Assembly: GCA_046350815.1 (NCBI GenBank)
Contig: JAXLZO010000001.1
Span: 300,001-332,000, forward strand
Origin: Candidatus Saccharimonadota bacterium
Lineage (GTDB): Bacteria; Patescibacteriota; Gracilibacteria; BD1-5; UBA2023
Direction: 5' to 3'
DNA length: 32,000 bases
Shown: positions 1,947 through 27,475 of the stretch, piece by piece
Layout: every line of letters starts with the position of its first letter
Numbering within the stretch: position 1 is the stretch's first letter
The notes under the pieces: generated by a model
Seen by the model: only the letters and a program-made list of their open reading frames with translations
Told to the model about the DNA's origin: nothing
Database searches by the model: none
Made by a program: the position numbers and the translations under genes

Positions 1947-2666
1947 CTATATTCACATATTTTCTCCAGATTGTAGTCAAGTTTTGGCTAGTAGATGCTC
2001 TTTCTCTGACTTTGTAAGCGGTCTTATTTCTCATTCTTGCAGAGTACCAAGATTTATGTGTTCTATACGAATTCTCTTGAGTTTCTTGACTTGTTTGCCA
2101 AGTGTCTCGACCATACGTCGAATTTGTCGATTCTTCCCCTCCTTGAGGATGATGCGGAACTTTCCTGATGCGACGCGCTCTACGACACAAGGACGTGTCA
2201 CAACGTCTCCAAGATCGACACCTTGCGACAATTTGTCTATTTCGTCATCTTCGATCGGTCAGAATATCTCTACAAGGTATTCTTTTTCATGGGAAAAGCT
2301 TGGATGCATCAGCTTATGAGCGATACGACCATCGTTTGTCAGGAGGATAAGACCCGTCGTCTCCTTGTCCAATCGACCAATAGGAAAAATACGTGTGGGG
2401 ATATCAATAATATCGAGAATACCTGTCTCACCGCGTGAGACACAGGTTGTGACGATACCACGAGGCTTATTGAAAGCATAGTAAACATATGCGAGCTGCT
2501 CTTTGATGACAGCATCATCGAGCTCTACTCGATCGATTTCCGGATCGATGATTTGTCCGATATGAGCTTTGACCCCATTAACACTGATGCGACCAAGAGA
2601 AATGAGTTCTTCAGCATGCCTACGCGATGCTACTCACTGCTGGGAGAGATATTTTTGAAGTTTCAT
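1947..2666 (-). CDS. RsuA/RluB-family rRNA pseudouridine synthase with N-terminal S4 domain
   Basis: MKLQKYLSQQ(G)VASRRHAEELISLGRISVNG (S4 domain). Catalytic motif GRLDKETTGLILLTNDG. KNRQIRRMVE. Four in-frame TGAs read as Gly; ends at TAG 1947-1949. Confidence 0.85.
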
Positions 2667-3582
2667 AATGAGAAAGATTGGTAATTCCATGGCTGCCTAC
2701 GATGACAACTTCATGGTGAAGAGAGATAGAATGTTGATGTTGTACGAGAGATCTCACATGAAGAGCGAGCGCTATGATCTGTTGCCATGTGGCCGTACCA
2801 TCATTGATGAAAAAATTCGCATGAGATTCAGATATTTTGACTCCACCACATGAGCATCACTTAGCTCATACACCCTCAAGAAGAGCTCATGCATATTGTG
2901 GAGATGGATTTTTGAAGAACGAACCACAACTTCGTCATCATGGTTGCTTGGTTTTACGATGAATACGAGCATCTATGATCTCATGATCTGGTGGAGTGAG
3001 ATCAAACACTGCAGATACAACAAAGAGTTCTGGATGGGATTTAAGAAGAGACGAACGGTATACATATTGAAGCTCTTCGACACTATATTGGCGAACTTGT
3101 CATGTATATATGTCGAGTATCTCAGCTGATTCAAGAATATCCGATGTTTCAAGTCCAAAACATCCAGCATTTCCTATGACAGCACCACCTATAGTGCCAG
3201 GAAGTCCAATCCACGGCATCAAAGTTGAGAGACCATCCCGAGTCATCTCAATACTCCAAGACGAAACCATTTCACCAGAAACGAGAGAAAAACGATTATC
3301 ACCAAGTGATTGCTTTCCTTTTGAATGATTGAGAATAACCAGTCCTTCAAAACAATCCGTTGCAAAGAGTGTATTCGATCCTCCACCAAGAAAAAATACT
3401 GGTATACAATGCTTTGTAGTCCAACGAAGAATATCAGGAAGTAACAGTATATCAGAGCGTGATGTAAGCTCGAGAAAGTATCGTGCTCATGCCTGAGTAC
3501 CAAATGAAGTCAGCTTCGTTATATCAACATATTCTTGCAGATGAACTCAACAGTCATTCAATTCAGAGAGTATTGAAGTCAT
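2620..3582 (-). CDS. murB: UDP-N-acetylenolpyruvoylglucosamine reductase
   Basis: TSFGTQA(G)ARYF, FFLGGGSNTLF, GLPGTIGGAVIGNAGCFG, QP(G)(G)RSCGSFFKNP, HANFFIN. The start could instead be ATG 3600 or 3606. Its 3' tail overlaps the next gene by 47 nt. Confidence 0.85.
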
Positions 3583-3722
3583 AAATATTCCAAAAATCAT
3601 CACCATAGTAATGAGAAGATGAAATCATCCAAGAAATTTGCATTTTTATTATCATCTGCTATACTTATTTCGATCTCGCAAGAGACCAACGTATGCTTAG
3701 GAAGAGAAATCTCCCAAATAAT

Positions 3723-3744
3723 AAAACCCCCGGCTAGGGGTTTT
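3723..3744 (-). terminator. Rho-independent, bidirectional-looking terminator hairpin between uvrA and murB
   Basis: aaaacccc-cggcta-ggggtttt: an 8-bp stem with an A-tract on one side and a T-tract on the other. Confidence 0.65.
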
Positions 3745-3942
3745 ATTATTTTCATCGGAGCTTGCGGATAAGCATCTTTCGAGCTCTTCCGTGTACTCGA
3801 TGAATCTCACATCCATAAAGGGCGAGGAGATATCTGAGGAAATTCCTCATAAACGTATACTAAGGAGATAAAAATCTCCCACTCCCATAAGGAATGGGAG
3901 CCAGGAGATTATAGAAAAAGGGGTAAGAAAACAAAGTCAAAA

Positions 3943-6807
3943 TTACTTTCTCTCATTTGGATGATAACCAAAATAACGATGGAGTGCGCGAGAGGTTGCT
4001 GTATCATGTTGGAGAAATCCATTAAACGGACCACTGTAGAGAAGTTGTCCACCAGCCTTACCACCAGATGGACCAATATCAATGATCCAATCAGCATGAG
4101 CAATCATATCAAGATTGTGCTCGATAACGACAACGGCATTTCCACGATCAACGAGTTTTGAGAGAATATCAAGAAGCTTCTGAACATCGGAAAAATGAAG
4201 TCCTGTTGTTGGCTCATCGAGAATATAGAGAGTCTTATCATTTGACCTCTTCGCAAGATCAAATGCGAGCTTGATACGTTGAGCTTCACCACCTGAGAGA
4301 GTTGGCGCTCATTGACCAAGAGTAATATATCAAAGTCCTACATCAAATAACACTTGAAGTACACGTGATATACGAGGAAATGCTGCAAAAAATTCAAGAG
4401 CATCCTCAACCGTCATCGAGAGAATATCAGCAATGTTTTTTCCCTTGAAAGTCACCTCAAGTGTTTCTTGATTGTATCTTGTGCCATGACACTGCTCACA
4501 TTCACTGTAGACATCAGGAAGAAAATACATTTCAATCTTCTTGGTTCCAGATCCTTCACAATGTTCACATCTTCCTCATCGTGTATTGAAGCTAAATCTT
4601 CCCGGACCAAATCATCGCTTCTGTGCATCAACACTCGCTGCAAAGACCTCACGAATGAGAGTGAATACTCCAGTATAGGTAGCAATATTGGAGTGCGGTG
4701 TTTTGCCTATTGGAGATTGATCGATAATGATTGCTTTCTCAAAAATATCGATCCCCTCAATCGCATCACATGCCCCATATTCTTTTGGGCTACGAGCAAA
4801 ATGACTTTCAGCGAATTTTGCAAGAGTGTCCATAATGAGCGATGACTTTCCGGATCAAGATACACCCGTCACCATAGTGAGTCCATGAGTCGGTATATCA
4901 ACATCGAGAGATCGGAGATTATTTTCACGAGCATTTTTGATCGACATAGATTCGTCGAACTTCGACACATAGTTGTCACGCCTGATATGTTTGCGCCCAG
5001 AAAGGTAGAGTGCTGTATCACCCTCAGAATTTTTGATAATCTCATCGTACGTACCATGGGCGACAATCTGTCATCCATGAACACCAGCACGAGGTCAAAT
5101 GTCCACAATATAATCACAGGCTCGCATAATATCTTCATCATGCTCGACGACAATCACGGTATTTCCAAGATTCGCCAGCTTATGAAGATTGGCTATGAGA
5201 AGATCATTGTCTCGGGAATGCAGACCTATGGAAGGTTCATCGAGTACATAGATAACACCTTCAAGTTTGGACCCAATCTGGGTTGCAAGGCGTATTCGTT
5301 GAGCTTCACCTCCGGATAAGGTTTGTGAGCGACGATCGAGAGTAACATACTCGAGCCCAACACCAGAGAGAAAATCAAGACGCTCAATAATGTTCTTGAG
5401 AATCTTATCAACTGCCTCTTGCATACCAGATGGCGCAATATAAGCAGCGAAAAAATCAATCAATTCCCGAACGGAAAGTGCAGCCATTTGGCCGATATGA
5501 AGCTCATTGATACGTACAAAAAGCGATGATTCTTTGAGTCGATATCCATCACAGAGAGAGCATGTTGTCTCGGTAGCATAAGCAGCTATCTTTTTATAGA
5601 GAGCATCTTTATCGGTTCACTCTGAGAATTTACGACGTAGGAATGTAAGAAGTCATTCGTATTTGATATTCTCACGTACCGTACCACTAAAACCTCGAAG
5701 AGGCTGACGGAGTGTGATCATGACACTCTTTGTATTGAGTATAAGATGACGTTGTTTTTTTGTAAGCGTATGATAGGCAACATTGACAGGGATCTCCATG
5801 TGATGAGCAAATTCATTCATCACCGGCATATAATAGGTGCTTCATGCCCATGGAAGCAAAGCTCATTCAGCGAGAGTAAGTCGAGGATTCACTACCATTT
5901 CTTCAATAAAATCCGTCTTCACTCACAAACCATGACAATCAGGACATGCACCATGATGAGAATTAAATGAAAAATCTCGTAATGACAAACTCTGAGCACT
6001 ATATCCACAGTCAGGACAAGATGCCTGAGCATGAAATATATCAATCACCCCTTGTCATTCTACCATAAGAGCCATTCGCTCAATACCGACTCGAAATGCG
6101 AGAGCAAGCGAGTCTCGAAGGCGTCTACGCTTGGAGAGATCATCCCGAAGAACATTACCAGTCAAGAGGCGATCGATAACAATAGCTATATACGGACTCG
6201 AAGACATATCGATACGAGTCGAATCATTTGCATGGTCACCAACTTGATATACTGAATCACCAACACTGTAGCGAACAAAACCCTCTCGAACGACTCGCTC
6301 TTCAAGCTGATGAAAAGTAATCTCATCTTCATAATCGAGAGGAGAGAGAATCATGAGTTTCAAACCATCCGCAAGAGTATCTATCTTTGTTTCTACATCA
6401 TCTACTGTTTGTTTAACAAGAGGAGTACTTGGGTGCTTTGGACAATATTGTATACCAACTGTTGCATAGAGGAGCCTCAAATAATCATAAATCTCTGTGA
6501 TCGTTCCTACGGTAGACCTTGGATTGGCAGATACGGTTTTTTGATTAATAGAAATCGTCGGAGAAAGTCCCTTAATTTCCTCAACTTGAGCTTCTTGCTC
6601 TCATCATGAAATAATCATGCGAGCATATGTTGAGAGGGACTCTAGATATTTTTGCTGCCCAAGAGCATAGATCGTATCAAAAGCAAGTGATGATTTTCCA
6701 GAGCCAGAAACACCTGTCACCACCGTGAGTGTATTTTTTGGTATACTCAGTGATACATTCTTGAGATTATGTGTTGTTGCGTTGATTATTTCGAGTTGAT
6801 CAGACAT
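3943..6807 (-). CDS. uvrA: Excinuclease ABC subunit A
   Basis: 954 aa in one frame. Walker [21 protein letters not shown] signatures [12 protein letters not shown] and [12 protein letters not shown]. Walker [13 protein letters not shown] and [12 protein letters not shown]. The five track ORFs (4330-6807) all share this frame. Confidence 0.95.
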
Positions 6808-6834
6808 ATTCGAAGAAAGTAATGATACGAAAGA

Positions 6835-7524
6835 TTAGACCAAGGTACTTGCCAGAGCAAGAACAATGATTTTTTGAGCTCCATAGGATCGAAAAATATG
6901 AGCAATAGACTGAAGTGTAGATCCACTCGAAATCACATCGTCAATTAAACAAACAGTTCGACCCTCGATTGTACGAGGATTAACCCAAGGCGCAAGCCTA
7001 AAAGCATCTCGAGTATTAAGAATACGCCCATCTTTGGAGAGATGAGCCTGATGTTCAGTGATTTTCCTCTTAAAAAGAAGGTTTTTGAGCTTTGGAATTT
7101 TTCTTCAAGATTTTGAAATTTTATACTGAATATATTCAGCAAGAAGGCGCGAATGATTATAGGGCCGAGTAAATATTTGATACCAACCAAACGGAACATA
7201 ACTCACAATAATATCATCATTTTTATACTGTTCCAAACATTCTGACATCAGAGCATCGAGTCCAGGGGAAAAAGATTGTATGTTATGACGTTGTCCAGAA
7301 TATTTAAAATTGTGAAGAACTTGTATAAAGTCACCTTCATAACGATAGGCGATAAAAACAGAATCAAAGACAGTCTCTCAAACTTCATTATTGAAATGAG
7401 TAGATCTCTCACGAAGGGAAAAATACCGATCAAGAAAGAGGGGTGATGACCAAAAAACACTCGTCCAAAGACGAGCATGTCAATACAAAGAAGAGAAGAA
7501 AGAACGAAAATAGAGTTTAAGCAT
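6835..7524 (-). CDS. comF: ComF-family phosphoribosyltransferase-domain protein
   Basis: AYRYEGDFIQVLHNFKYSG, RPYNHSRLLAEY and the C-terminal PRTase motif VCLIDDVISSGSTLQSIA. Stop TAA 6835-6837. The start overlaps the pepA stop by 8 nt. Confidence 0.75.
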
Positions 7525-8923
7525 TTCTCTCTCTCATTGCAAGTCAAATGAGAGCCTCTACTCCAGCACCAGTAGCTCAAGCTCAAAATACATCAAGAGG
7601 AGATTCAAGATATGCAGGTCAAGCAATATCAACGTGAGTATAAGGAATATCGCCACAAAAGTTTGAAAGAAATGCGGCTCACATGGTTGATCATGTTTTT
7701 ACACCAGATGTCACATTCTTAATATCTGCAATGGTTGCCTTTGTTTTTTCACGATAATACTCCTCATATGGCAATCTCCAATACCTCTCAAGGACAAATG
7801 ATGGGCATGGATGAACAAGTGCATTTATTGTTTGTTCATCGCTTCACATAACACCACTATAGCGAGAACCAAGGGCAACAACACAAGCTCAAGTAAGTGT
7901 TGCTACAGTCAGAATCTTCTTTGGAGCAAGCTCATCAATAGCAAGACACATCATATCAGCAAGAACGAGTCGACCTTCAGCATCCGTGTGATGGATTTCA
8001 ACACTTACACCATTTTTAGCAATATAAATATCGAGCGGCTTGAACGCATTTGGACCAGTAAGATTATCAACAATACCAACAACTCATGCAAAGTTATGTG
8101 AAATATTCATACTATCAAGATACCAGAGGGTTGCAATCACAGCAGCAGAGCCCGACATATCACATTTCATATCGAGCATTCCTGTATCAGGCTTGATTTG
8201 TAAACCGCCAGCATCAAAAATAACTCATTTTCCTACAAATACCTGATCAATTTGTTGTGAGTCCTTTGATTTAAGTATGATCGCTTGAGCTCCATCACTT
8301 CCACCAGCTGCAACTGCCGTAATAAGTCCACACCCCATATCACGAAGTGCTTTGTCATCGTAGGACTGAATGCTTGTATTTTTCCATGGGAGAGCTTCAA
8401 TCATAGCCCGATATTGCTTCGGTGATTTTGCATTTGGTGGCAAATTCACAAAATCACGCGCAAGAGTAAGTGCTGTAATTTTTGCAAGAGTATCTTGAAT
8501 AGCTGAATCAATTGATGTCACAAGAATCAAAGGAACCTCTTTTGTAGTACGATCAGAGCGAAAATAATCAAAAGAATAAAGAGCACACCCAAGACGTAAG
8601 AGGAGACAATGAGACTTATTCCCATCAACAAAAGAAAAATCATACATCACTTTCTTTCCAGCGCTTGATATCCATCGTGTTATTTCATCTTGAGAAATAA
8701 AATCAACATGAGTAAATATATATTTTTGAGAGTTTTTATATACAACATAGGAACCATTTTTCTGGAAATCATGGGAAGAGACTTCTGAAAAATCCAAAAT
8801 ATCAACATTTTTATCGATAAAAATGGTCACCTCAAGAAAGGAAGAAAAATCAATTCTATCAACGATGGAAAAAGGAAGACGAAGAGAAATCATAATGTGG
8901 GAATAAAGTTTTAATCTTACCAT
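7517..8923 (-). CDS. pepA: M17 leucyl aminopeptidase
   Basis: VGK(G)[39 protein letters not shown](G)ACVVALG. An alternative start is ATG 8893. Confidence 0.9.
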
Positions 8924-10130
8924 ATACGAGAGCCAGGAGAAGTCAACTCAAGATCAAGGTGGATGCTATACCAAAAAGACTGAATCATGTTAGGAATATC
9001 GCCGAAAAAAGGAATCATCAGAAAAACAAGATAAGACTTGTAATAATCAAAAAAAGATGTTCCTGGGATCGCAAAAGAAATGGAAAAAAAGACGGAGTAA
9101 AAGATATCAATGCGAAACTCAAAAAAGTAAAAAAGAAATAGAAACCAGCACCAGAGATATTAAAATGCAAGAGAAAAATAAGGAGAAAAAGAATGCTTCC
9201 TGTAATATAAGTAAAAAATACCTGAGAAACATGAAATCGAATATAAAGAAACCATCCACAAAAAAATGAGAGAAGGAGTAGTAAACTCGAATGAACAAAA
9301 AGATCGGGAGAAAGAAGAAATACACTCAATCAAAATAAGAGAGAAAGGGTCACGCTGTAATAACCAATTTCAAAAAAAGTAGAACTCAATCGAGAAATTC
9401 ATCGCAAAGAAGGGAAAAAGAAGAGGGAAACCATTCCAAAGATCAAAGATAAAAACTGTGCACCAAAAAGAAAACGAATACCAAATAAGTGGAGAGAAAA
9501 TAAACCCAAGAGAAAGAGAGCAATAAAATGAAAAAATATAAGCCATTGTTCTCGAAGAAGACGAAAGAAACGATAATATATACCTATAGTCGTAAGGCAG
9601 AGAACTCAAAAAAGAAAACCTGTAATAAATAACAATGAAAAACTATTTTGAAAAAATGAAAGAGCTATGAGTACAAATGAAAGAAAGAGAGAAACCATAT
9701 TTGCAACATATGCCACATTCAAAAGAATGTGATCTATTTTTTCACCAAAAGAAAATTCAAGAAAAGTAGAAAAATAATATCCAATGGATGCCATATACCC
9801 AGAAAAAAGAATACTGAGAACATAGACCTGTAGTGTCGGATCAATCCAACTATGATATCCACTCACGAGAAGGAGATACCAACCAAGAAGAATGAGAATA
9901 TAAATACTTTGTGGAGTACTGATATTATGAATTATTTGAACCTTTTCGTAATTTCCTCTGCTTTTTTGAAAAAATTGGAGCAATCATCAAAGTGGGCAAT
10001 ATGTTGAATGAAATCAAAGAAAAAGAGATATACAAAAAAACGGAATAAGGAAAAAAAGAAATCACCAATACCCTCACCAAAATGCAAGTACGAGAAGAAA
10101 AACATGAAAAAGAGAAATTATCCAATTCAT
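8856..10130 (-). CDS. Phe/Leu-rich polytopic membrane protein of unknown family (gene D of an unknown cluster)
   Basis: 425 codons free of TAA/TAG in one minus frame. Track ORFs 9606-9983 and 9018-9329 are joined through TGAs. Almost entirely hydrophobic segments (MNWIISLFHVFLLVLAFWGGYWGFLFFLIPFF...). No motif recognised. Confidence 0.6.
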
Positions 10131-12431: not shown

Positions 12432-13709
12432 ATGAAAATTACTGACAAGTTTTGAGCAATCTCTCACGGACTTTCATTGAGCTTAATATTTCTTGTATTT
12501 CTTCATGTTCTTGGACTTTACTCACTTCCAACACTTCGTGATATACAATCTAATCATCTTGGGAAATATCAATCCTATGATAGTTATAAATCATTTGTAT
12601 CAGCCAAACAAAATAGCATTGTCGATGAAACGAAGGAAATTATTCAAAAGAATTATGTTGAACCGATCGATATGAGTGGTTCTTATATTGAAAAAGCATA
12701 TGTTGAATGACTTGTTTCGAGTCTGAAAGATCCATTTTCTGAATATTTAAATGGAAAGGAATTAGAATATTTTAGTGAATCACTTCGTGGAAACTTCGCT
12801 GGTATAGGGGCCGTAATTACGAGTGTTGATGATGGAGTGGTTATTCGTGAGGTTCTTCAAGATTCGCCAGCTTATAAAGCACAACTCAAGGTTGGTGACA
12901 TTATAACAATGGTTAATACCGGATCACTTCGTGGAGTAACTACAACAGAAGCGGTGAATCTTATTCGTTGAAAACCAGGAACAGCAGTTGATATTACGTA
13001 TCGAAGATGAGGTCTTATAAACAAGATAAATATTATACGATCTATCGTAAAAGTGCCATCAATCGAATCAGAAAAAACAAAAGATGGATTTCTCTATATA
13101 CGAGTTAAGATGTTTTGACAAGATACTGCACGTGATTTTTCAGAAATTCTCCTGAAAAATAATCCAAAAGAAATAAAGGCTCTTGTAATAGATTTACGAG
13201 ATAATGGCGGATGACTTCTCTCTGCAGCGCAAGAAATGCTTTCTCATTTTTTCAAGGAAGATACGGTAGTTCTTCGTGATCGTTGAAGAAAAAATAATGG
13301 TGGTAAATATCTCTCATGATGATTGTTTGAAGAAGAAGTAAAAACAAGTAATACAAATCCAATAATGACGAATCTTCCAATCGTAGTTTTAGTGAATGAA
13401 AATTCCGCTTCCGCTTCAGAAATATTTGCATGAGCCATACAGGATCTTAAGCGTTGAAAGGTAATAGGAAGAAAAACATACGGAAAATGATCAGTACAAC
13501 AACCATTTGAACTCAGTGATGGAAGTCAAATAAAGATTACCATAGCACGATGGTTTACACCACTTAATCATTCTATTGATAAACTTGGAATAACACCAGA
13601 TATTACACTTGAACCAATACCAATTGATGCAAGTATGGAAAAAATTCTCTCACTCCTTGGTCAGGAAAAAAGTAAGGCTCTTGAACTTGCAAAAAAACTC
13701 ACTCAATAA
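12432..13709 (+). CDS. ctpA: S41 carboxy-terminal processing peptidase with N-terminal membrane anchor and PDZ domain
   Basis: FAGIGAVI, PDZ LKVGDIITMVN, LIR(G)KPGT, VIDLRDNGG(G)LL, NENSASASEIFA(G)AIQD, TYGK(G)SVQ. I hand-counted 12 in-frame TGAs. Confidence 0.9.
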
Positions 13710-13719
13710 TTTTACATTT

Positions 13720-14961
13720 ATGATCGATAAAGATATCCAAAAATGGATCGAATGAGAAACAAAGAGACAAACTTCGACACTTGAAATGATAGCATCAGAA
13801 AATATTATTTCACCTGATGTTATGGCTTGTTTATCGACTCCATTTGCGAACAAATATAGTGAATGACTTCCAGAAAAACGATATTATTCTTGACAAGAAT
13901 TTGTCGACTATGTCGAAAATGCAACGATTGATGCAGCAAAGAAAATATTCGGATTTGAGGCTGTAAATGTTCAACCTCATTCTGGATCACCAGCAAATCT
14001 AGCAATACAACTTGCACTTCTATCGCCTGGTGATACGATACTTTCTCTTTCGCTCGATCAATGAGGACATCTTTCTCATGGTCACAGACTCAATTATTCT
14101 GGAAAACTCTATAACATAGTGAGTTATACACTGGATCAAGACTCACATCGTATTGATATGGATCGAGTTGAGAGTTTGGCACGAGAATATCAACCAAAAA
14201 TGATCATTGCATGATTTTCTGCATATCCTCGAGATATAGATTGGCAATGATTTTCTCGCATAGCAAAGATGGTAGATGCATACTTGCTTGCTGATATTTC
14301 TCATACTGCAGGGTTAATTGCTGGATGAATACTTCCATCTCCGGTTGGACATGCTGATATTATTATGACAACTACTCATAAAACACTTCGATGACCAAGA
14401 TGAGCAATCATTGGTTGTCGATGAGACTTAGAAAAGAAAATTAATTCAGCAGTCTTTCCTTGAGTCCAGGGTTGACCTCATATGCACTCTATTCTTGCAA
14501 AACTCCAGGCATTTCATGAGGTTCTAAAGCCTGAATTTCAGGATTATGCTCGACAAGTAAAAGAAAATGCAGCTGTTCTTGCTGAATCACTCTTGAAAAG
14601 GTGATTTCGTCTTATTACTGGTGGAACAGACACACATCTTATTCTTATTGATGTTTTCTCAAGTCATGGAATTTCTGGTGATCGCGCTCAGGATGTTCTC
14701 GAAGGTGTTGGTATATCTGTGAATAAAAATATGATTCCAAATGATATAAGAACCGCTCTTTCTCCTTCTGGTATACGAATTGGTACGCCAGCGCTCACGA
14801 CACGCGGTTGTACGACTCATGATATGGAGAAAATAGCAGAATATCTTGATATTGCTTTGCAAAATACAGAAAGAAATGCTATATTAGCGTCTCTTTGAGA
14901 AGAAATACATAATTTTTCATCGAGTCTTCCAATATTTTCTCCTCGTTGGATATGTCATTAG
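13720..14961 (+). CDS. glyA: Serine hydroxymethyltransferase
   Basis: [18 protein letters not shown](G)[29 protein letters not shown](G)G, TTTHKTLR(G)PR(G). Stop TAG 14959-14961. Confidence 0.95.
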
Positions 14962-15575: not shown

Positions 15576-17111
15576 TTATTTTCACTTTAGAAAACCTAGA
15601 CTCAGAGTTCATTTATGAATAAATGATAAGAGGCTCACAAATAGAAAAAAGAAAAAACAAACAATACATATAAGATAGCTTTCATATTTTGAAAGGCTAA
15701 AATTTTGAAGATTTCATGGCATGGAGTGTGCGTATTCAGCAATAGATAAAACTATATTAAGTCAATAATGGACCCACCATGCTAAGAGAATTCATCAAAA
15801 ATGATTTATTTCATTTATCACAAGAGAGAATATTCCTCAAATAGTAATAGGGGCAATAAATGGTCAAATGAGTATATTTACTATAGGTCAGTAGAGAGAA
15901 AATTGTCAAAATGAAACAATTAGAACAACAATAGTTGCTATAGTAGCTGAAAGAGTCGTTATCAAAGTATCACGAAGACCAATAATAGCATTTGGAATAA
16001 ATGTAAGGTATTTTTGAAAAAATGGCACAAAAAGAATCATTCCAAATGTCGCAAAGAAAGAAAGGTAAAAACTCGCATCAGTGATGATTTCATGAGGCAT
16101 GACTATACCAAAACCAAATGCTACAAGAAATAAAAGAATGAGAGGATCTATTTTTTGATTTCACTGCAAGGCAAGATATCATAGAACTCACATAATAGCA
16201 GCTCGTATAACAGGAACACCTCATCATACAATCCATACAAAAATCAAGAGTGCTGTTATAGTCGTGAATATCCGAAAACGTCGTGGAAAAATAGTGAATA
16301 TTCCACTAAAAAGAATGAGCACAAGAGTAATATTTGAACCAGATACCACAAGAATATGAGAGATTCATGTTTCTTGATAGAGTGTTTGGTATTCTTTCGT
16401 TATGCCTTGTTTATCTCAAAAAATCATTGCCGCAAGGAGTCATGATTGGTTTGATGGATAGAGTGATCGTAGTTGTTTATAAATATATTCCCGAATAGTA
16501 AAACTCGAGAAAAAAGAATTATTTTTTCATACAATCTCAAATGTATCAATATTTGTGCTAAGATATATCTTCTTTGCCTGAAGAAATTCCTTATAGCGAA
16601 ATTCCGTTGTATTTTTTGGGATCTCAAGTTTGACAACACTTGACACAATATCGCCAGGTTTTGGACTAATATTCTTATCTACATTAATATTGATAAGGAA
16701 ATTATGAGAAAGAGATATATCGTCAACCTGTCGAAGTTCGCCAATAATTCTATTTTTACTTTCACTACCACCATCCATGCGAACGACATAAACATTTATT
16801 TTTCTATTTTTTCCGATAAGAGAATAAATACTTTCTATAGATATGTTCGTATCCCTGACTTCATCGTGTATTACATATCAACCAAGAAGAAATGATCCAA
16901 ATAAGAAAAGAATACTATATCAGATCCACTGCTTTGATCTACAAATGAGAGGACTTAAAAATAAGCCTAAGATAAAAATACTACCAAGAAGAAAACTTAG
17001 TATAGGGCTAAAATATACACAAAAAATCCCTCCAAAGAAGGAAAAGACAGAAAGAGTTAGAATTATTTTTGCAATGGTTTGATAACGAATTTGAAAAGTT
17101 CGTGAGATCAT
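15576..17111 (-). CDS. comEC: ComEC/Rec2 DNA-uptake channel protein (OB/DUF4131-like plus competence domain only)
   Basis: A single frame links track ORFs 16920-17159, 16527-16778 and 15906-16100. LLAAMIF(G)DKQGI, T(G)ISHILVVSGSNITLV, FYLSFFATFGMI, (G)QFSLY(G)PIVNILI(G)PFIAP. It ends after the last TM block, so there is no metallo-beta-lactamase domain. An alternative TTG start is at 17159. Confidence 0.8.
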
Positions 17112-17854
17112 AAAAGAAATAGTAATACACAACAAACTTGAGTAATCGAAAAATATCAAAAGAGAAGATTATTATTTTCTCGTGCACCATCAAAAAACTC
17201 TCATACAAAAAGCATGATGGAAAAACCTATAAAACCAAGCGCAGCACTTAGACCATGAATTTTTGATGTCTGATTCATGGTATAGATAACGAAAAAAAGA
17301 AAGAACGTAACAATAGCATAAGTAATTCCAAGTGGAAAGAGATCTCATCAAATTGGCACAGTTGTATCGGGATTATTATAGCTTACTCCAATCAAAAGAG
17401 ATGTATTTTGTCCATAAATAACCTCGCTTATAAATCATCAAATCCATCCAACCCATGATGCAAAAAGAAATGAAAGTACAGATATATCGAGATACTTATC
17501 TCTATTGAGTCCAAAGCTTTCAACTTTACTCCAGAGAACTACGAGAAAACCAAATATACTTCCAACAAGCGAAAGATTGTAATTAGTGCTGAATAAGAGA
17601 GTTTGGAGTCCATATCTCATGCTATAGCTCCACTGATCAATATGTTCGAGAAAATAAAAGAGTCTTCCAAATACAAATATACTTACTATAAATAAGAGAA
17701 AGTTTCTGCTAAAAAACCGAAAGTTTACACCTCATTTCTTTGAAAGTTTTCTCAACATCCACCCAAAAAGAAATGTTGAAATGATGAGTGTTATTCAGAA
17801 GGTAAATATATGAATTTCGTTCTCAGTACTACCAAGAGTTATATACGGATACAT
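17063..17854 (-). CDS. lgt: Prolipoprotein diacylglyceryl transferase-like membrane protein
   Basis: 264 codons. Multi-TM, with WI(G)(G)FISEVIYGQNT, LFPLGITYAIV and IGFSIMLFV(G)EFFDGAR, resembling the Lgt G-rich, YE and E-F-R blocks. Weaker match than the other calls. Confidence 0.5.
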
Positions 17855-17865: not shown

Positions 17866-19389
17866 TTAGCGGGCATATTCTATAACGCGTTTCTCTCTGA
17901 TAAGATTTACTTTTACCTCCCCAGGATAGGAGAGTTTTTCTTCTATTTCACTTGCAATATTGCGAGCGAGAGCGAGTGAATCAATATCATTGATTTCATC
18001 TGCATCGACAAAAATTCGAATTTCTCGTCCAGCCTGAAGTGCAAATGCTTTATCGACACCAGAATAACTCATAGCAATTCACTCCATTTCTTGTACTCGC
18101 TTCAGATAATCATCACTATTCATGCGTCGCGCGCCAGGACGAACAGCACTGATTGCATCGGCAATTTGGACAATTTTTGTTTCAATACAAATGCATGGTA
18201 CTCCATCGTGGTGACCTTCAATAATATTGGTAAGTTCCTCAGAGAGTCAGTATTTACGAGCAAGTTTGCCACCGAGTTCCGGATGTGTTCATTCTATATC
18301 ATGATCAAGTGCTTTTCCGATGTCGTGCAGCAGTCCACCACGATAGGCAAGTTCTTCATTTGCCCCTATAAGTTGTGCAATTGATCGAGCAATATAGGCA
18401 ACTTCTTTGGAATGAAGAATAATATTTTGCCCATAACTTGTTCGAAATCGAAGTTTGCCAATGAGTGGTGCAATACCTTCAGGAAGATCATATATTTCCA
18501 TTTCTTCAAGGGTTTTTTGTCCAAGATCCTTGATAAGTTCTTCAGCTTCATTCTGATTTTTTTCAACAATTTCCTCTATACGAGCTGGTTGTATCCTTTT
18601 ATCAGCAATGAGTTCGTCGAGTGATCTTTTTGCTATATAGCGACGAAAAAGATCAAAACTCGAGAGAAATACAACATCAGGAGTATCATCAATGATGAGT
18701 GATACTCATGTTATCCGTTCGAATGCTATAATATTTCTTCATTCCTTCCCAATAAGTTTTCATTTTATATCATCACTTTCAAGATTGACAATTGTTTGTG
18801 TTACTTCTGCAGTAAGATCACCTGCATAATTTTGTATGGCTTTGATAAGAATTTCACGAGAAATTTCTTTTTCACGAATTTGAAGGTCTTTCTTTTTCTT
18901 CTCTATAAGCTTGAGAATGTCATTCTCATAAATAGATTCAGTTTCCTGAAGAATTTGTTCACGAGCCTCATCAATACTCAGGTGAGCAATCTTTTCAAGA
19001 GAGGTTCGTAAGGAACTTCTTTCCCTACTGAGTTCCATCTCAAGATCTTGCATTTTACTTCGTTCTTCTTGTAGATTTGTATATTTTTTATCAATTTCTT
19101 CGAATTTCTTCGTGAGTTTTTCTTCTCTTTCTTGAAGTTTTGATTCTATTTGTATTTGTTGACTGATGCGATCTTGTAGGTCTGATTTGAGACTTTTAAG
19201 ATGTGATTCTTGCTGTCGAATTTCTTCTTGTTTCTGAAGATGTTTCTGGTTGAAATCCTTATGGAGCTTTTGGTATGTTTGTCATTCAAATAGTTTTTGT
19301 TCAGATTTGAGTTTTTTACTATACACAAAAATTGCTCCTGCAGATATCATTCAACTCACAAAAAGAGAGATGATGATGGGGGTGAGCAT
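17866..19389 (-). CDS. rny: Ribonuclease Y
   Basis: N-terminal TM MLTPIIISLFVS(G)MISAGAIFVY, a long coiled coil, a KH region, HD motif GGLLHDIGKALDH and C-terminal SGVDKAFALQAGREIRIFV. The three track ORFs share one frame. Confidence 0.92.
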
Positions 19390-19430
19390 TTGGATAATTT
19401 GAAAAATAAGAGAGGTTTTTCCTCTTTTTG

Positions 19431-19458
19431 AGTATAATTTTGTGCATCTAATTGTCAA
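19431..19458 (-). promoter_or_regulatory. Promoter TTGACA-N16-TATACT for rny
   Basis: Minus-strand sequence TTGACAattagatgcacaaaatTATACT, ~40 nt upstream of ATG 19389. Confidence 0.5.
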
Positions 19459-19462
19459 AACA

Positions 19463-19969
19463 ATGTCAGGAAAAGTATGGACGTGGCGGTGTCAATCTTG
19501 TGCTCGGCTCTCACTCATAGCACATTTGAGAGAATGAGGTGAGGAAGATAATGATGATTCTCAGGAAGAAACAAAGGGTAATCTTGAAGTTTTTGCTGAG
19601 CCTGATCAAGAAATACCGGCACTTTTTTGTGTTTGTTGCGCTGAATATAATTCTCTCGATCTTATAGAAGTCGATCCAATCGAAATAGATGAGTATAGCT
19701 CTCGTCAAATAGGATTTTTCCCATATATAACTCGGGATGAGAATGATATGATTTCATTACGCGTAGATGGTGAATGAGAATATAGCGCAAGGGGAGAATA
19801 TTCCAGTGTTTTGTTTACTCTTTTTCATGATGGATCACTCATAGATTCGTATTATGCTGATAACTCATTTTGGGAAAATTGGGAATATTCTTATGATGAA
19901 GGTATATCTATGATTGTATCAAACGGTTGATTTCATATATGGAAGTTACCAGTTATCTTGTATTCATAA
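19463..19969 (+). CDS. Cys-rich (zinc-ribbon-like) hypothetical protein
   Basis: 169 codons free of TAA/TAG. MSGKVWTWRCQSCARL...ALFCVCCAEYNSL (CxxC plus CxCC), an acidic linker, and an aromatic-rich C-terminal half. Confidence 0.55.
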
Positions 19970-19977: not shown

Positions 19978-20280
19978 ATGTCTCAAGAATCAGAAAAAGA
20001 TCTTTCACTCCTTGTATGTACTGGAAGAAGCTGTCGCGAGCGACAAAGTGAATATATATTGAAGCGTCTTGGAAATGATTTTTGTTCTCTTGGAGAGCCA
20101 GCAAACATAGAAATTGCTCCTACACTCTGTCGTGGACGTTGTCAAGAGGGCCCTATTCTTGTTGAACATTATGACGATAAAGTTCAAATAGAACATACTC
20201 GCTCAAATCCTATTAAAGCAAGTAAAATTTTTAAACATCTCCTCACACAATTATGACAAAAAAAATCAAAGTCGGTATAG
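19978..20280 (+). CDS. Thioredoxin-like [2Fe-2S] ferredoxin-domain protein
   Basis: MSQESEKDLSLLVCTGRSCRERQSEYILKRL...APTLCRGRCQEGPILV, with a four-Cys CxxxxC...CxxxC pattern. The former TGA at 20254-20256 is read through to TAG 20278-20280. Confidence 0.65.
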
Positions 20281-21128
20281 TTGGAATAGTTGGTCGTCCA
20301 AATGCTGGAAAAAGTACATTTTTAAATACTCTTATTGGTGAAAATGTTTCACTTGTTGCATCATCACCTCAAGCGACAAGAAGATCAATCAAAGGTATAT
20401 ACCAGGATGAAGACTCCCAAATTATTTTTATTGATCTTCCGGGATATCATAAGGGTGAGACAGTTATCAGTCGTGCTCTTATGAAAGAGTTTGAGTCATG
20501 ATTACGAAGTGTAGATATGATTCTTCATTTTATTGATCCCTCGAGACCAGCTGGTGATGAACAATCATCACTTCAAGAACGTTTGAGTTTTCTTTCTCGG
20601 ACACCCGTACTTACTGTTTATACGAAATCAGATCTACGCTCTATACAAACAATACCGACATGAGATACAGTTTTTTCGATTTCTTCACACGAGCCATCTA
20701 CTTTCTGACCACTTCTCTTATCTATTAAGGATAAATTGAGTGAATGAGAACCTCTCTATGATGAAGATTATTACACAGATCAAGATATATTTATCAGAGC
20801 GAGTGAGATCATTCGACAACAGGTGATAGAAAATCTCCAAGAAGAACTTCCTCATGCTGTTGCGGTGGATGTAACACAATTTGATATTGATGAGGATGGT
20901 CGAGCACAGTCCATATTTGCCTATATTGTTGTTGAGAGTGATTCTCAAAAAGGTATTATTCTTGGAAAACAGGCATCTCGTCTTGTAGAAGTTCGTGAAA
21001 AAGCAAGATTAATCCTCAATAGTGTATTTGATCGACATACTCGACTTTTTCTACGTGTCAAAGTTGTCAAAAATTGGCGGAAGAATGAGCAATTTATCAG
21101 TGAAGTTGTTTTCGGTAATAGAAAATAG
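20253..21128 (+). CDS. era: GTPase Era
   Basis: G1 GRPNAGKSTFLN, G3 DLPG, G4 TKSD and C-terminal KH region IFAYIVVESDSQKGIILGK...VKVVKNWRK. Confidence 0.92.
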
Positions 21129-21149: not shown

Positions 21150-21815
21150 ATGGCACAGTACTCTCAATTTGCAGAGCAATTTAGTAGGACACGAGAATGA
21201 CTTGTTTGGCCTGAGATAGCAATGATTCTTGAGTGTATTCTCAGCTGAAATTATTCCCCTAAAAATATTCTTGATATAGGTTGTTGATCGGGTCGCTTTT
21301 TTCAGAATATCATAGATTTTATACCATTGGATATACCATTAGTATGAATCGACCCATGTAGAGAGCTTCTTGATGTTGCACATGCAAAACAATATCATCA
21401 AAAAAATATTACTTGGCTAGAATGATCGTTTGAATCAATGGAGAATTTGAATCTTGGTCAATTTGATATAATCGCAGCTATCGCTTCTTTTCATCATATT
21501 ATTTGAAAGTGAGATTCACAGCAAGCTGTTCTATCGATTTTTAATCATCTTCTTCCTGGTGGATACTTTGCTATGACGAATTGGAATTTGTTCCATGAGC
21601 AGTATCAGTGAAAATATGGAAAATACCGGACGGAAGAGAATAATCAGGTCTATTATAATATTCCTTTTGATGGAAATCACCGTAGGTATGTTGCATGGAG
21701 CATGAAAGAACTACAAGAATTATTTGATCCACAATACTGGAATATTCTTCTTCATACAGCTACACCAGAAACAGAAAAGAATATTATTACAATAGTTCAG
21801 AAAAAATCGGTTTAA
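21150..21815 (+). CDS. Class I SAM-dependent methyltransferase
   Basis: Motif I ILDIGC(G)SGRF, post-I VGIDP, and FDIIAAIASFHH. 221 aa. Confidence 0.8.
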
Positions 21816-21828
21816 CCGATTTTTTTTG
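21801..21828 (+). terminator. Short A/T-flanked hairpin shared by convergent genes
   Basis: aaaaaatcgg-ttt-aaccgattttttt. Both convergent stop codons lie inside it. Confidence 0.45.
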
Positions 21829-22267: not shown

Positions 22268-22275
22268 AATATTTT

Positions 22276-23709
22276 TTAATTAGCAATATTTGTATCGGCT
22301 GTGGGTGTGTTTTTAATAATATCAGTTTGGATTTTCATAAGTATTCATTCGAGGATATTTTCTCTATCTCTTTTCTTGATAGTATCGAATATTGTTTGAG
22401 CTTCACTATATTTCTGATCGCTCATTGCTTGCAAGAGTTTTGCATAATCCATGATGATAGAGGAGTTGTTCTCTATACTTACCTGAGATAGAAGTGTATC
22501 ACCTTCTTGTTTTTTGTCGAGAAGATATCGTGTTGCAACGTAGTATGAGATAATATCAGGATCATTTGGATAACTTTTATAAGCATCCTCACTCCACCTT
22601 TCCATCGCGAGCTTCGAATCTTGTAGAATAGCGATCAGAAGCGCTGTAGTATAATCATTGCTTGTAGCACTCTCATCCTTGAGTATATATCCAAAAACTG
22701 TGAGCATATGTTCATAGTTTTTCAGCTGAGCATCAACATGAATAATTTTTCGCTCAATATCAATTTTTGGCGTATATCATGCAAGTACTCATCGATTGAG
22801 TACATCACTTGCGCCAATCCAATCTTTGAGTTCAATTTTTGTTTGTCCAAGAGCAAAAAGTGATGCTGTATCTAGAGGATTCTGTGAGAGATATGATACG
22901 AATAAATCATTTGCTTCTTTATATGATCACATATCATATACACTAAATGCAGCAATTTTCTTTGCAGGAGTATAATCCGGGCGATTGGTAAGAATAGTTT
23001 TGATGAGGCTGTTGCTCACATAAGGTTCGCCTATTTTGTACCATGCGCCAGCAATGATAGTGTCACGATAGTAGTGGTCTTGTGTTACATCATTACTACG
23101 TGCGTAGCTTTCTTTGAGTATCTTTAGTGGTTCATATGATCAGCTATATTCATTGAGTGTGACAATACAGTTTTCTACTCATGTGATACAGGTTCGAGCA
23201 ACTCGAAGATATTCTGTTTCATTTTTTGATAGAGGAATATTTTTTTGTAGAGTTTCATCTTTTATCGTATCGCTTCTTGTGTAGGATCTGAGAAAAATAG
23301 TCTTAGTTTGTCATGAAAGAGAAGCTATTTTTGGTGTCAGAGTCGTGATAACATCGTCGTATCTTTTGAGATTGTAGAGACTGGTTGTGTATTTTTCTAG
23401 TAAAATTGCATCATTCGGGGTTTTGGAGAGAGCAGCGGAGTAATATTTCTCTGCTTCGTCATACCGAGCTTCCAACATCGCAAGATCCCCTTGTTCACTC
23501 AGGTTTCTATTCGCGTATCTTCCACGTGCAAGGGTTATTCTATCCATGAGACTCGTTTCCTCTTCCTCGTGAATAGTTATTCAACTTTCGGATTGATTTG
23601 GACTAGTATCATTTTTCAGGGTTTTCACTCATGTATACGATCAAACACATCCTCATAAAAGAAATAATGATAATAAAAAAAGTAGTATTCGAAGAAAAAA
23701 AGTGTTCAT
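22276..23709 (-). CDS. TPR-repeat lipoprotein
   Basis: Signal peptide and lipobox MNTFFLRILLFLLSLFLL(G)GC, with the lipobox Gly encoded by TGA 23653-23655. TPR-like repeats follow (AMLEARYDEAEKYYSAALSKTPNDA, YKEANDLFVSYLSQNPLD, YSEAQTIFDTI). Track ORFs 23311-23547 and 22345-22707 share the frame. Confidence 0.75.
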
Positions 23710-23791
23710 AAATAATTCATCAAAGTTCCCTATAGTATAAGCAAGATTAATAAGTACCCAAAGATTTTTTGAGTTCTTTTTTCAAAATTGC

Positions 23792-23818
23792 TTGACTCTT
23801 CTCGGAAATTCTTATAAT
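23792..23818 (+). promoter_or_regulatory. Promoter TTGACT-N15-TATAAT for tRNA-Ser(UGA)
   Basis: gcTTGACTcttctcggaaattctTATAATcc, 24 nt upstream of the tRNA 5' end. Confidence 0.55.
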
Positions 23819-23842
23819 CCATCACGCGCTCAAGGATCTTAT

Positions 23843-23930
23843 GGAGGGATGGCAGAGCGGTTGAATGCACCGGTCTTGAAAACCGGCAGGCCGAAAGGTC
23901 TCCAGGGTTCGAATCCCTGTTCCTCCGCCA
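23843..23930 (+). tRNA. tRNA-Ser (anticodon TGA)
   Basis: Cloverleaf folded by hand. Acceptor GGAGGGA/TTCCTCC, anticodon loop cTTGAaa, long variable arm, T-loop GGTTCGAATCC, encoded CCA. Confidence 0.9.
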
Positions 23931-23941
23931 TTTTATTATCA

Positions 23942-23971
23942 AAAACACTGAAGAAATTTCTTCAGTGTTTT
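23942..23971. terminator. Perfect palindromic, bidirectional terminator
   Basis: aaaacactgaagaaatttcttcagtgtttt, between the tRNA-Ser 3' end and the stop of the HExxH gene. Confidence 0.7.
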
Positions 23972-23975
23972 AAGT

Positions 23976-24905
23976 TTATCTACCTTGTTCTACCCAGTTT
24001 AAAAGAGACAGTAATGTATTATTATCCACTTTATAATCAGGATTTGTAATATGCAAAAGATGAAATAATGATGTAAGTCGCTCAGGTGTATATACACAGT
24101 TCATAAGTTGATCCCTATAAGTATTACAAAAGTCTATAAAATCGGTTTTTCTCGACTGTTTTCCGAGTAAAATTTGTGCTGCTAAAAGTTTTTGTGCCAA
24201 TAAAGATCCTAAGGTATATTGGTCCATAATATCTCCATTAGATCATCAACCAGCTCTTCTTATTCCATCATCATGAGTGTAAGATCATTTTACAATGGTT
24301 GCTTCGGCACCAGTTAAGTGTCCAAAACATTCAAGGATAATTTTATATGCGCTCGATCAACCTATCTGAAGTAATGATTTTTGGGTATAAGATGAGCGTA
24401 ATGTGGTGATATATCGAAAATACCAATGATTAATTTCATGATTGAGGGTATTAATAAGCTCGTTTTCATTTGGTATTCTTCATAAATATATACCAATATG
24501 GGTTTTACTCGGACTATACAAACCTTCCAAATATGCTGATTTAGTAGTTGATTCCGTTATGTCTTGTGTATATACATATCCAAATACACTAGGATCATCA
24601 AGTATTTCTCATTCGTTATTTTTAAGGTATTTTATAATATTTCCAGCGACAGGAATTAAATTTGTTTTAATGAGTTGTTTCTCATGCTCACTTACTCATA
24701 ACATAGATATTTGTCGATTCAGAGCTTCTTCGGTGATTTTTAGAATTCGCTGAGGAGTTAAAGATCTCTCGTGACTATTATTTTGGATAATATGAGATAC
24801 TGTTTGATGCATATCCGTGCAAACTACCTGTGCAGAATTCTGTAATACTGCAGCGTTATTTCATATTGAAGTAGCTGAATGAGGTTCATTTTGATTTATT
24901 TCCAT
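23976..24905 (-). CDS. Hypothetical protein with an HExxH zinc-metallopeptidase-like motif
   Basis: 310 codons, extending track ORF 23976-24227 upstream through TGAs. ...IGIYL(G)[23 protein letters not shown].... No signal peptide. Confidence 0.55.
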
Positions 24906-25037
24906 ACAGTAAACATTAATTATACTTTATAAATCCTATCATAAAAAATAAAATATGTCTAATTTTGAAGTTAACTTATTTTAAATTAATTGAGAAAAAA
25001 CAAGATAAAATCCCCATAAGAAAACTGAAAACTTCTT

Positions 25038-25064
25038 TTGACATTTTATCAAATTTCTTATAAT
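25038..25064 (+). promoter_or_regulatory. Promoter TTGACA-N15-TATAAT for tRNA-Ser(GCU) and the CAU tRNA
   Basis: tTTGACAttttatcaaatttctTATAATcc. Same layout and same cTTATAATcc context as 23792-23818. Confidence 0.55.
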
Positions 25065-25088
25065 CCCCGAGTATCTTTTCGGATATAT

Positions 25089-25181
25089 GGTGGGTTACTC
25101 AAGTGGCTGAAGAGGCGGGTTTGCTAAACCTGTAGGGCGCAGCAATGTGCCGCCGGGGTTCGAATCCCCGACCCACCGCCA
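25089..25181 (+). tRNA. tRNA-Ser (anticodon GCT)
   Basis: Acceptor GGTGGGT/ACCCACC, anticodon loop tTGCTaa, long variable arm, T-loop GGTTCGAATCC, encoded CCA. Confidence 0.9.
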
Positions 25182-25245
25182 TTTTTTCAAGATAATACAC
25201 CCTTCGGGGATGAGAAGTAAGATCCAGCGAGCGAAGCGAGTCGGA

Positions 25246-25264
25246 AATCCCCGACCCACCGCCA
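25246..25264 (+). repeat. Direct repeat of the 3' end of tRNA-Ser(GCU)
   Basis: aatccccgacccaccgcca is identical at 25163-25181 and 25246-25264. The copy lacks the 5' two-thirds of the tRNA. Confidence 0.8.
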
Positions 25265-25292
25265 GTTACATATTTCAAGAAATTCAAATTTT

Positions 25293-25368
25293 GGGCCTAT
25301 AGCTCAGTGGTTAGAGCAGTCGGCTCATAACCGATTGGTCCCTGGTTCAATCCCAGGTGGGCCCACCA
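25293..25368 (+). tRNA. tRNA with CAT anticodon (elongator Met, or lysidine-dependent Ile2)
   Basis: Acceptor GGGCCTA/TGGGCCC, loop cTCATaa, encoded CCA. It is not an initiator: positions 1-72 pair and there is no GGG/CCC anticodon stem. The acceptor and D arm look Ile-like. Confidence 0.85.
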
Positions 25369-25381
25369 TCAATGAATATTT

Positions 25382-25413
25382 AAAAAGCTTCAGCATCTTC
25401 GTTGAAGCTTTTT
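25382..25413. terminator. Rho-independent, bidirectional terminator
   Basis: aaaaagcttcagc-atcttc-gttgaagcttttt, between the tRNA cluster and the convergent membrane-protein gene. Confidence 0.7.
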
Positions 25414-25452
25414 AAATATTATTTTCTATTTTGAGAATATATTGAATGGATA

Positions 25453-26499
25453 TTAATCTTGAAAATCTCGAAAGGTTGGGAATAATTTCCCAACAAACTC
25501 ATCTATTTTTGTCTCCATTCTTTTAAAATAAATTGCTATAAAAATAATTCCTATACCGATACTAGAAAGAATAAAAGGAAAAAGTAGGCTTCCTGAAAAT
25601 ACTGTATATGAAAGATGGCTAATATAACCAAATATTCCGAGAGCCCCAAACACCACAAATACTCTTCTTAGAAAAATCATACCTAAGAACAAGAGTCCAA
25701 TATTTATGATGCAATAAATTATCGGTCACCAAAATGATCATGAATTCATCATGGATAATGATCACCAAAATATAATTGTACCAAATAGAGATAACCAAAA
25801 TCAAAAATCGGGTTTTCTTTTATTGTAGATATCCATAATTAAACTTCAGATTATCATTAGTATCCCGAATCAAAAAGATATATTTCTTTTTATCTCATAT
25901 CATAACTCATAAGAATCATATGACACATCTCGGAAGATATAATCTCAAACATCCATGCTCATATACCAAAGAGTAATTGCAAGTGGCATGAGCATAAAAG
26001 GATATCTATAACGAAAAAAAGCTATGCAAGATCATATGAGTGTCCCAATTTCCATAGTAAGCCACTTTCCATTAATTTCAGTATGATATGAGTGATAGAA
26101 TGTTGGTTCGTCCCATAATCCCATTAACTTCTGTATAGTATAGATTGCGAGAGGAATAAGTGCGATACCTAATGTTGCAAAAATTCACGCAGGAACTGTA
26201 AAATTCCTCTTTCTAAGAGACTCTGCAAGTCAAAATGCAACAAATAAGTATAAAGTTGCAATCATAAATCATACAAAGTCACCAAAAGACTCCCAGGCCA
26301 TTCCAAGAAAAAACGACATAGCACCTATAGCTATTCCTCCACCAAGGTAGTAGAGAATATTTATAAATGAGAACTTTGCACTTCTTGAATCTTCTTTTGT
26401 TGTAAAAAAATTCCAAAGAGAAAGTGCTTGCTCATTCGTAATAAAACCTTGATTTACAGCTTTCTCAAAGTCAGATTTTATAATTTTTATTGTTTCCAT
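25453..26499 (-). CDS. Polytopic membrane protein with a short soluble N-terminal domain (family not determined)
   Basis: 349 codons linking track ORFs 26269-26499 and 25453-25692 in one frame. METIKIIKSDFEKAVNQGFITNEQALSLWNFF..., followed by about 9 hydrophobic segments. Confidence 0.65.
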
Positions 26500-26584
26500 A
26501 GCTCAATTTATTGAATAAAAAATTGAGCCTAGCATACTTTATAGAAAAAATCAAAAAATTACCTAATGAACGGTAGGTTTTTGT

Positions 26585-27475
26585 TTAGATGTTTCCAAAT
26601 TCCCCATTTTGATATTCTCTCAAGGCACGCTCGAGTCATTCTTCACTATCCATAACGAATGGTCCGTAGTGATATACTGGTTCTTGGATTGGCTCTCATG
26701 CGAATATGAGAATCTCAGATTTTCATTCTGATTGCATTGTTATAACCTCATTCAATTCCACACTTTCGAGAAAATCTCCAGTGGATACTTGGAAATTATC
26801 CACGGTGAGTTTTCCATTCCTTACAAGAATATAGAGCTTATAAGTGAGCGGAATATCGAGAGGTGTACTCTTGTGATTACTATTCTCATCAAAAGAGAGA
26901 TTTGCCATAAAAATCGGACTTTGTGCTTTCGCGGGTCCAATTTTTCAAAGATATTCTCCTGCCATGAGTTGCATAATAGTGCTATCATTGATCTTAATAG
27001 TAGGAATATCTTTTGATGTGATCGATTGGTATCAAGGAGAGATTTCTTTTTGATCCTTTGGAAGATTCACCCATATTTGGGCAAATTCCAAATATCCACC
27101 AGTTTTATTGAATGTGGTTTCTAGATATTCTTGATGAATAATTCCTCGTCCGGCAGTCATCCACTGAACATTTCCTGGTCAGATAATACCACCATTTCCT
27201 CCAGAATCTTTATGTTCTACGCTTCCAGAATATACAATGGTGACAGTTTCAAATCCTTTATGAGGATGTTGTCCGACTCATCGTTTTCTCGGCTGTTCTA
27301 GAAGATGATTTGTTTTCTGTGGAGGTGTATACGTAGGCGACTCATAATCAAACATCAGAAATGGAGATGAGTGTATTCCGATTTCTTGGGAGTATCTGGG
27401 AATGAGATTGTGCACGAGGAAGCCATCCCCAACCCAGTGCTTTCTGTGTTCGTTTTTAATAATATATTTATTCAT
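26585..27475 (-). CDS. Pirin-family (bicupin) protein
   Basis: R(G)[32 protein letters not shown](G)[17 protein letters not shown]; C-terminal A(G)[19 protein letters not shown]. Confidence 0.9.

Follow-up and report, generated by a model that had tools for sequence, protein, structure and literature searches.

UGA as a glycine codon in a 32 kb stretch of DNA from a probable Gracilibacteria/BD1-5-type bacterium

In a 32 kb stretch of DNA from contig JAXLZO010000001.1 (positions 300,001 to 332,000; hereafter the window, meaning the whole stretch that was analysed), the codon UGA is an ordinary glycine codon, and only UAA and UAG terminate translation in the 20 genes seen. The window (GC content 37.4%) is almost certainly chromosomal DNA of an uncultured Gracilibacteria/BD1-5-type bacterium (JAEDAM01, Patescibacteria, Candidate Phyla Radiation (CPR)) that uses translation table 25, and its nearest relatives share the reading of UGA as Gly. 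A preliminary description of the same DNA had proposed this code and this type of lineage, and its claims are taken up below with the results that bear on them. Table 25, the Candidate Division SR1 and Gracilibacteria code, reportedly goes back to Campbell et al. 2013 and Rinke et al. 2013.

Open reading frames under alternative codes

Under the standard bacterial code (table 11), open reading frames (ORFs) of at least 100 aa totalled 15.5 kb, and the longest reached 436 aa. When TGA was read through, the longest ORF grew to 964 aa and the share of the window covered by ORFs of at least 150 aa rose from 17% to 83%, with most of the rest taken up by the rRNA operon; read-through of TAA or TAG, used as a control, gave no comparable gain. 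The earlier warning that the standard-code ORF track is misleading for this DNA was therefore well founded.

Within the 20 genes, 189 in-frame TGAs were counted, distributed over 19 of them, and not a single in-frame TAA or TAG. The genes ended in TAA (15) or TAG (5) and never in TGA, as expected from the proposal that each would become one TAA/TAG-terminated frame, and their lengths agreed with those of homologues. Alignments to Pfam and PDB entries were full length and free of frame breaks, with end-to-end Pfam matches spanning the TGAs of serine hydroxymethyltransferase (SHMT; 4-399 of 399) and of the M17 peptidase (2-310 of 310). The uvrA gene (3943-6807) contains 15 TGAs and is cut into 16 pieces under table 11; the five same-frame uvrA ORFs that had been listed between 4330 and 6807 are exactly those of at least 60 aa in the table-11 ORF track.

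Amino acid at TGA columns

With X in place of TGA, eight proteins were aligned to experimentally solved standard-code homologues, and the best alignment of each was tallied. Among 73 aligned TGA columns, 42 faced Gly and 3 faced gaps; Trp was found in none of the 70 non-gap columns, and the remaining residues were scattered among variable positions. Given a background of 8.1% Gly in the same alignments, the binomial probability of 42 in 73 is ~4e-28. Columns encoded by TGG had Trp as their top residue (7 of 18). This tabulation, similar to one that the preliminary description had suggested as a check, agrees with its assignment of UGA to Gly and not Trp, as do the composition and the codon exchanges given below.

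TGA occupied invariant Gly positions in the second Walker A motif of UvrA (GVS-G-SGKS), SHMT (HKTLR-G-PR-G), the M17 peptidase (VGK-G-xxFDxGG), the S41 peptidase (GG-G-LL and GK-G-S), pirin (R-G-VGxHPH) and motif I of the methyltransferase (GC-G-xG). All TGA coordinates that had been named beforehand (13212, 13488, 14392, 14401 and 21285 on the plus strand; 8225, 2935-2940 and 27278 on the minus strand) are indeed TGA and in frame, and seven of the motif assignments made from them (two each in the S41 peptidase and SHMT, one each in the methyltransferase, the M17 peptidase and pirin) hold in the solved-structure alignments. The eighth, an invariant Gly motif at QP[TGA][TGA]RSCGS of MurB, fails: solved structures of MurB have V,S and L,E opposite the double TGA (2935-2940), whose columns are variable. 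Four other MurB TGAs face Gly in the solved structure.

A UvrA homologue search returned 120 proteins, from which 28 standard-code outgroups (Bacillus, Macrococcoides and others) were separated from the Gracilibacteria-like set, and columns conserved in at least 80% of these 28 were considered informative. At such columns TGA fell on Gly in 8 of 8 cases, GGN fell on Gly, TGG on Trp, and CGA, CGC, CGT, AGA and AGG on Arg; no informative codon other than TGA departed from the standard code. Many close UvrA homologues show W at the invariant-Gly columns (7 to 44 of 89, depending on the column), and in one of them (P0001) W stands at 11 of the window's 15 TGA columns, because the source pipelines translated these sequences with table 4. 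The database W is artefactual, and from it one can see that TGA takes up identical Gly positions throughout the clade.

Composition and codon exchange between orthologues

TGA made up 23.7 per 1000 codons (~2.4%), level with GGT (23.3) and about one third of the Gly codons. Gly content was 5.1% when GGN was counted alone and a normal 7.4% when TGA was added, while Trp content was already normal with TGG alone (0.76%) and would be 3.1% with TGA.

Codon-level orthologue alignments were made to the syntenic contigs of three relatives: L001 (Logan SRR14234123, UvrA 92% identical), L082 (JGI metagenome 3300056825) and L083 (ENA ERZ724510). The first two span largely the same genes, so that their counts are not mutually independent; L083 covers the other half of the window and is independent of both. 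TGA was retained at 72, 75 and 41 sites, respectively. It was exchanged with GGN 37, 45 and 16 times (98 in sum) and with TGG 1, 1 and 0 times (2 in sum), and the next commonest partner after GGN was TCA (Ser). This pattern is what synonymous drift under table 25 would produce. Under table 4, a change from TGA to TGG is a synonymous single transition that should dominate, and taken by themselves the counts therefore exclude that code.

Gene map

Once TAA and TAG are the sole stops, the window resolves into a compact series of genes followed by three tRNAs and a 16S-23S operon. Pfam confirms the gene identities, and Rfam the 16S coordinates given in the preliminary description. The presence of 16S and 23S rRNA identifies the window as chromosomal DNA. 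The features are as follows (TGA counts are in frame).

278-1483, minus: S-layer-homology (SLH) protein, 5' part (Pfam SLH); the only gene without TGA (0 of 34 Gly codons)
1947-2690, minus: pseudouridine synthase with S4 and PseudoU_synth_2 domains (Pfam); 5 TGA; stop TAG
2620-3606, minus: MurB (Pfam); 8 TGA; 4 of 6 columns aligned to 4pyt are Gly
3943-6807, minus: UvrA, 954 codons; 15 TGA, one of them in the second Walker A motif (GVS[TGA]SGKS); stop TAA
6835-7542, minus: ComF-like phosphoribosyltransferase (Pfam); 4 TGA; start uncertain
7517-8923, minus: M17 leucyl aminopeptidase (Pfam); 10 TGA; 7 of 9 aligned columns Gly, including VGK[TGA]VIFDAGG at 8225-8227
8856-10130, minus: membrane protein, family not assigned; 13 TGA; orthologues in L001 and L082
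10118-11539, minus: protein, family not assigned; 11 TGA
12432-13709, plus: S41 C-terminal processing peptidase (Pfam); 12 TGA; 5 of 11 aligned columns Gly, including 13212 and 13488
13720-14961, plus: SHMT (Pfam); 14 TGA; 10 of 14 columns Gly, including HKTLR[TGA]PR[TGA] at 14392 and 14401
15576-17159, minus: ComEC-type competence membrane protein (Pfam); 21 TGA
17063-17854, minus: Lgt prolipoprotein diacylglyceryl transferase (Pfam); 9 TGA
17866-19389, minus: RNase Y (Pfam); open frame reaches 19842, true start likely near 19389
20253-21128, plus: Era GTPase (Pfam); 4 TGA; two CGG codons (20598, 21078)
21150-21815, plus: class I S-adenosylmethionine (SAM) methyltransferase (Pfam); 8 TGA; motif I GC[TGA]SG (TGA at 21285), with Gly there in each of 3 solved homologues
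22276-23709, minus: TPR-repeat protein (Pfam); 11 TGA
23976-24905, minus: protein, family not assigned; 8 TGA
25453-26535, minus: DUF2157 membrane protein (Pfam); 13 TGA
26585-27475, minus: pirin (Pfam); 7 TGA; 5 of 7 columns Gly, including R[TGA]VGQHPH at 27278
23843-25368, plus: tRNA-Ser (UGA anticodon), tRNA-Ser(GCU) and tRNA-Met(CAU); none decodes the UGA codon
27881-29408, plus: 16S rRNA (Rfam)
29812-32000, plus: 23S rRNA (Rfam), cut by the window end

In the open frame of RNase Y (17866-19842), roughly the first 150 codons seem spurious. A short ORF rich in Cys (about 19984-20280, plus strand) lies upstream of Era; its CxxxxC...CxxxC pattern recalls thioredoxin-like [2Fe-2S] ferredoxins. 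The 16S-23S spacer (29409-29811, ~400 bp) is without a tRNA gene, neither rRNA has large insertions relative to the Rfam models, and a relaxed Rfam scan of the window returned no further RNA genes.

Decoding machinery

From the clade literature rather than from the window itself, UGA would be expected to be read by a dedicated tRNA-Gly whose anticodon is UCA, and release factor 2 (RF2, prfB), which otherwise terminates at UGA, would have been lost. The identity elements of the table-25 tRNA-Gly(UCA) are G1:C72, C2:G71, G3:C70 and U73. This tRNA and RF2 loss are hallmarks of the clade (PMC8629427; gTranslate preprint). For BD1-5, Hanke et al. 2014 gave proteomic proof of UGA as Gly: 97 peptides fitted the Gly translation alone, and 3 fitted that with Trp alone (PMC4032931).

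Lineage and relatives

The nearest named UvrA homologues belong to Candidatus Gracilibacteria (54-58% identity). A pattern-based scan in which 185,579 species were represented by one genome each, and which may have missed a closer relative, gave no UvrA above ~57% identity; the top matches were metagenome-assembled genomes (MAGs) of Gracilibacteria, Peribacteria or Patescibacteria, most with 6-65 in-frame TGAs in uvrA. The closest public sequences were metagenome contigs with ~90-92% UvrA identity, and in the metagenomes, where pirin homologues were followed, every contig from a close relative stops at the rRNA operon. In a neighbour-joining tree of UvrA, the window, L001 and L082 formed their own branch inside the TGA-recoded radiation, with a sister group of 36-45% GC. 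The proposal of a Gracilibacteria-type lineage is in keeping with both the named homologues and this position.

Two Gracilibacteria MAGs in the sister group (L002 and L003) have 0 and 1 TGA in uvrA and ~8 TGA per 1000 codons. They were considered as reversions to the standard code, and this was rejected: ORF coverage still rises on TGA read-through (0.70 to 0.85 and 0.66 to 0.92, respectively), which identifies them as low-usage table-25 genomes. A low-GC (22-33%) sister clade (L015-L017, L019, L031-L033, L078) has 21-65 in-frame TGAs and no TGG in uvrA, and may represent the Absconditabacteria type of lineage, with Trp encoded by other codons.

Table 25 is limited to Gracilibacteria/BD1-5 and Absconditabacteria (PMC8629427; gTranslate preprint) and is currently tied to the GTDB class JAEDAM01 (orders BD1-5 and Absconditabacterales), from which several hundred genomes are known (gTranslate preprint). 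The moderate GC and the lack of a CGA/CGG change, described below, point to the BD1-5 side, and we infer that the organism probably belongs there rather than to Absconditabacterales. The fluorescence in situ hybridization probe BD1207 for BD1-5, had no match within 3 mismatches in the 16S of the window; because the probe is population-specific, this says nothing about the placement.

CGA and CGG codons

In Absconditabacteria, CGA and CGG are read as Trp, and CGG is possibly read as Trp in some Gracilibacteria (PMC8629427). An organism that combined table 25 with this further reassignment would show rare CGA and CGG codons aligned to Trp. CGG is rare in the window genes (15 codons, 19 per 10,000), which resembles usage before or during reassignment (PMC8629427). 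CGA stands at 122 per 10,000, against <37 in reassigned genomes (PMC8629427), and at conserved UvrA columns it faces Arg (5) or Lys (2). Opposite the two CGG codons of Era (20598 and 21078), solved homologues have Lys and the DWR motif's conserved Arg. In the three relatives, CGA and CGG swap almost only with other Arg codons, with no CGG to TGG and one CGA to TGG exchange. CGA and CGG that are both rare and aligned to Trp, as in the extended Absconditabacterales code, were thus not seen, and the added reassignment is improbable. Judged from these codon comparisons, UGA is the sole deviation from the standard code, with CGA and CGG behaving as Arg codons.

Alternative readings of UGA

Several points weigh against the assignment of the window to a table-25 organism of this lineage. 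No tRNA(UCA) turned up in the window, in 24 Gracilibacteria-type loci or in 5 loci of closer relatives, and 32 kb is too short for a verdict on the absence of prfB. About 40% of the TGA columns are at variable positions and are uninformative either way, and one TGA, in a variable and poorly conserved UvrA loop, faces Trp in the solved homologue 3pih. The placement comes from a single-protein neighbour-joining tree and from NCBI organism names, which are unreliable for this group; the gTranslate preprint says so of the 'Gracilibacteria' labels in particular.

The Trp in 3pih is one of the few observations that would suit table 4, in which UGA is Trp and which Mycoplasmatales and several endosymbionts of insects use. 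Table 4 likewise requires TGA to be a sense codon, as it clearly is here, and some public pipelines gave close relatives a table-4 translation, which accounts for the W in database homologues. Against these stand the complete lack of Trp at the non-gap TGA columns of the best solved homologues, the eight conserved UvrA columns that are all Gly while conserved Trp columns are encoded by TGG, the preference of TGA for GGN over TGG in all three relatives, and an implied Trp content (3.1%) that is implausible. Table 4 is accordingly very improbable. Even less credible is the possibility that TGA is a true stop, with the genes being pseudogenes or products of assembly error and the long frames accidental. 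All genes are indeed fragmented under table 11, but a decayed sequence does not fit the zero count of in-frame TAA and TAG beside 189 TGAs, the unbroken full-length Pfam and PDB alignments, the enrichment of TGA at invariant Gly positions, or the TGAs that orthologues from independent metagenomes carry at the same codons. Selenocysteine insertion or programmed read-through may practically be dismissed: other bacteria use UGA for selenocysteine, but at 2.4% of codons and in 19 of 20 genes TGA is far too general here, its columns align to Gly and not to Cys, and Rfam detected no element of the selenocysteine insertion sequence type in the window, relaxed thresholds included.

TGA avoidance in the S-layer gene

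The lack of TGA in the SLH gene (278-1483, minus strand), which falls outside the range of the preliminary description (1947-27475), differs from the 34% share of TGA among the Gly codons of the other 19 genes (P ~8e-7), and the orthologue in L082 (15856-19328, 1157 codons) is similarly depleted, with 2 TGA among 102 Gly codons (P ~8e-16). The SLH gene strongly favours GGT and CGT, and its GC content, 43%, is above that of the window; an exact look-up of its protein gave no entry. This codon profile suggests a highly expressed gene, presumably the most highly expressed one here, under translational selection against UGA; alternatively, the gene may be a fairly recent acquisition from a standard-code donor. 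Its 3' continuation (window positions 1-430, minus strand) shows several frame switches relative to the L082 orthologue, which is itself split over two frames; these could reflect an error in the assembly, hypervariability of the region or decay of the gene.

These observations raise the doubtful though possible idea that decoding of UGA as Gly has a measurable cost in this lineage and that the organism is a new family-level branch of code 25 in which CGA and CGG remain Arg. Novelty at the family level is considered because its UvrA is at most 57% identical to all species representatives retrieved.

Conclusions

Compared with known table-25 bacteria, the window shows nothing different in kind: it has frequent UGA at conserved Gly, UAA and UAG as sole terminators, a low to moderate GC content (37%) and a CPR-like set of genes, and its nearest homologues carry the name Gracilibacteria. 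What sets it apart is the distance of its UvrA from every species representative in the pattern-based scan. The Absconditabacterales variant (Shulgina & Eddy 2021, PMC8629427) has UGA as Gly in common with the window, in which CGA and CGG nevertheless stay Arg and CGA occurs at over three times its frequency in reassigned genomes. Table 4 (Mycoplasmatales, Hodgkinia, Nasuia, Zinderia, Stammera and some Eggerthellaceae) likewise makes UGA a sense codon, with RF2 loss presumed, but there the amino acid is Trp and in the window it is Gly.

Since UGA as Gly is already well documented, the result is essential for annotation and is neither a discovery nor a new question on the genetic code. Any gene call, domain scan or claim of a non-coding region made in the window with table 11 is wrong. 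Public collections carry systematic Gly-to-Trp errors for the clade, in which table-4 translations put Trp at invariant Gly, for example in the Walker A motif and in SAM-binding motif I.

On the biological side, the window adds one fairly divergent lineage to the several hundred known table-25 genomes, and this lineage did not take the further step from CGA/CGG to Trp. If the avoidance of TGA in the SLH gene is due to translational selection and not to gene transfer, the decoding of UGA would be slower or less accurate than that of GGN codons, possibly through competition with tRNA-Trp or because tRNA-Gly(UCA) is scarce.

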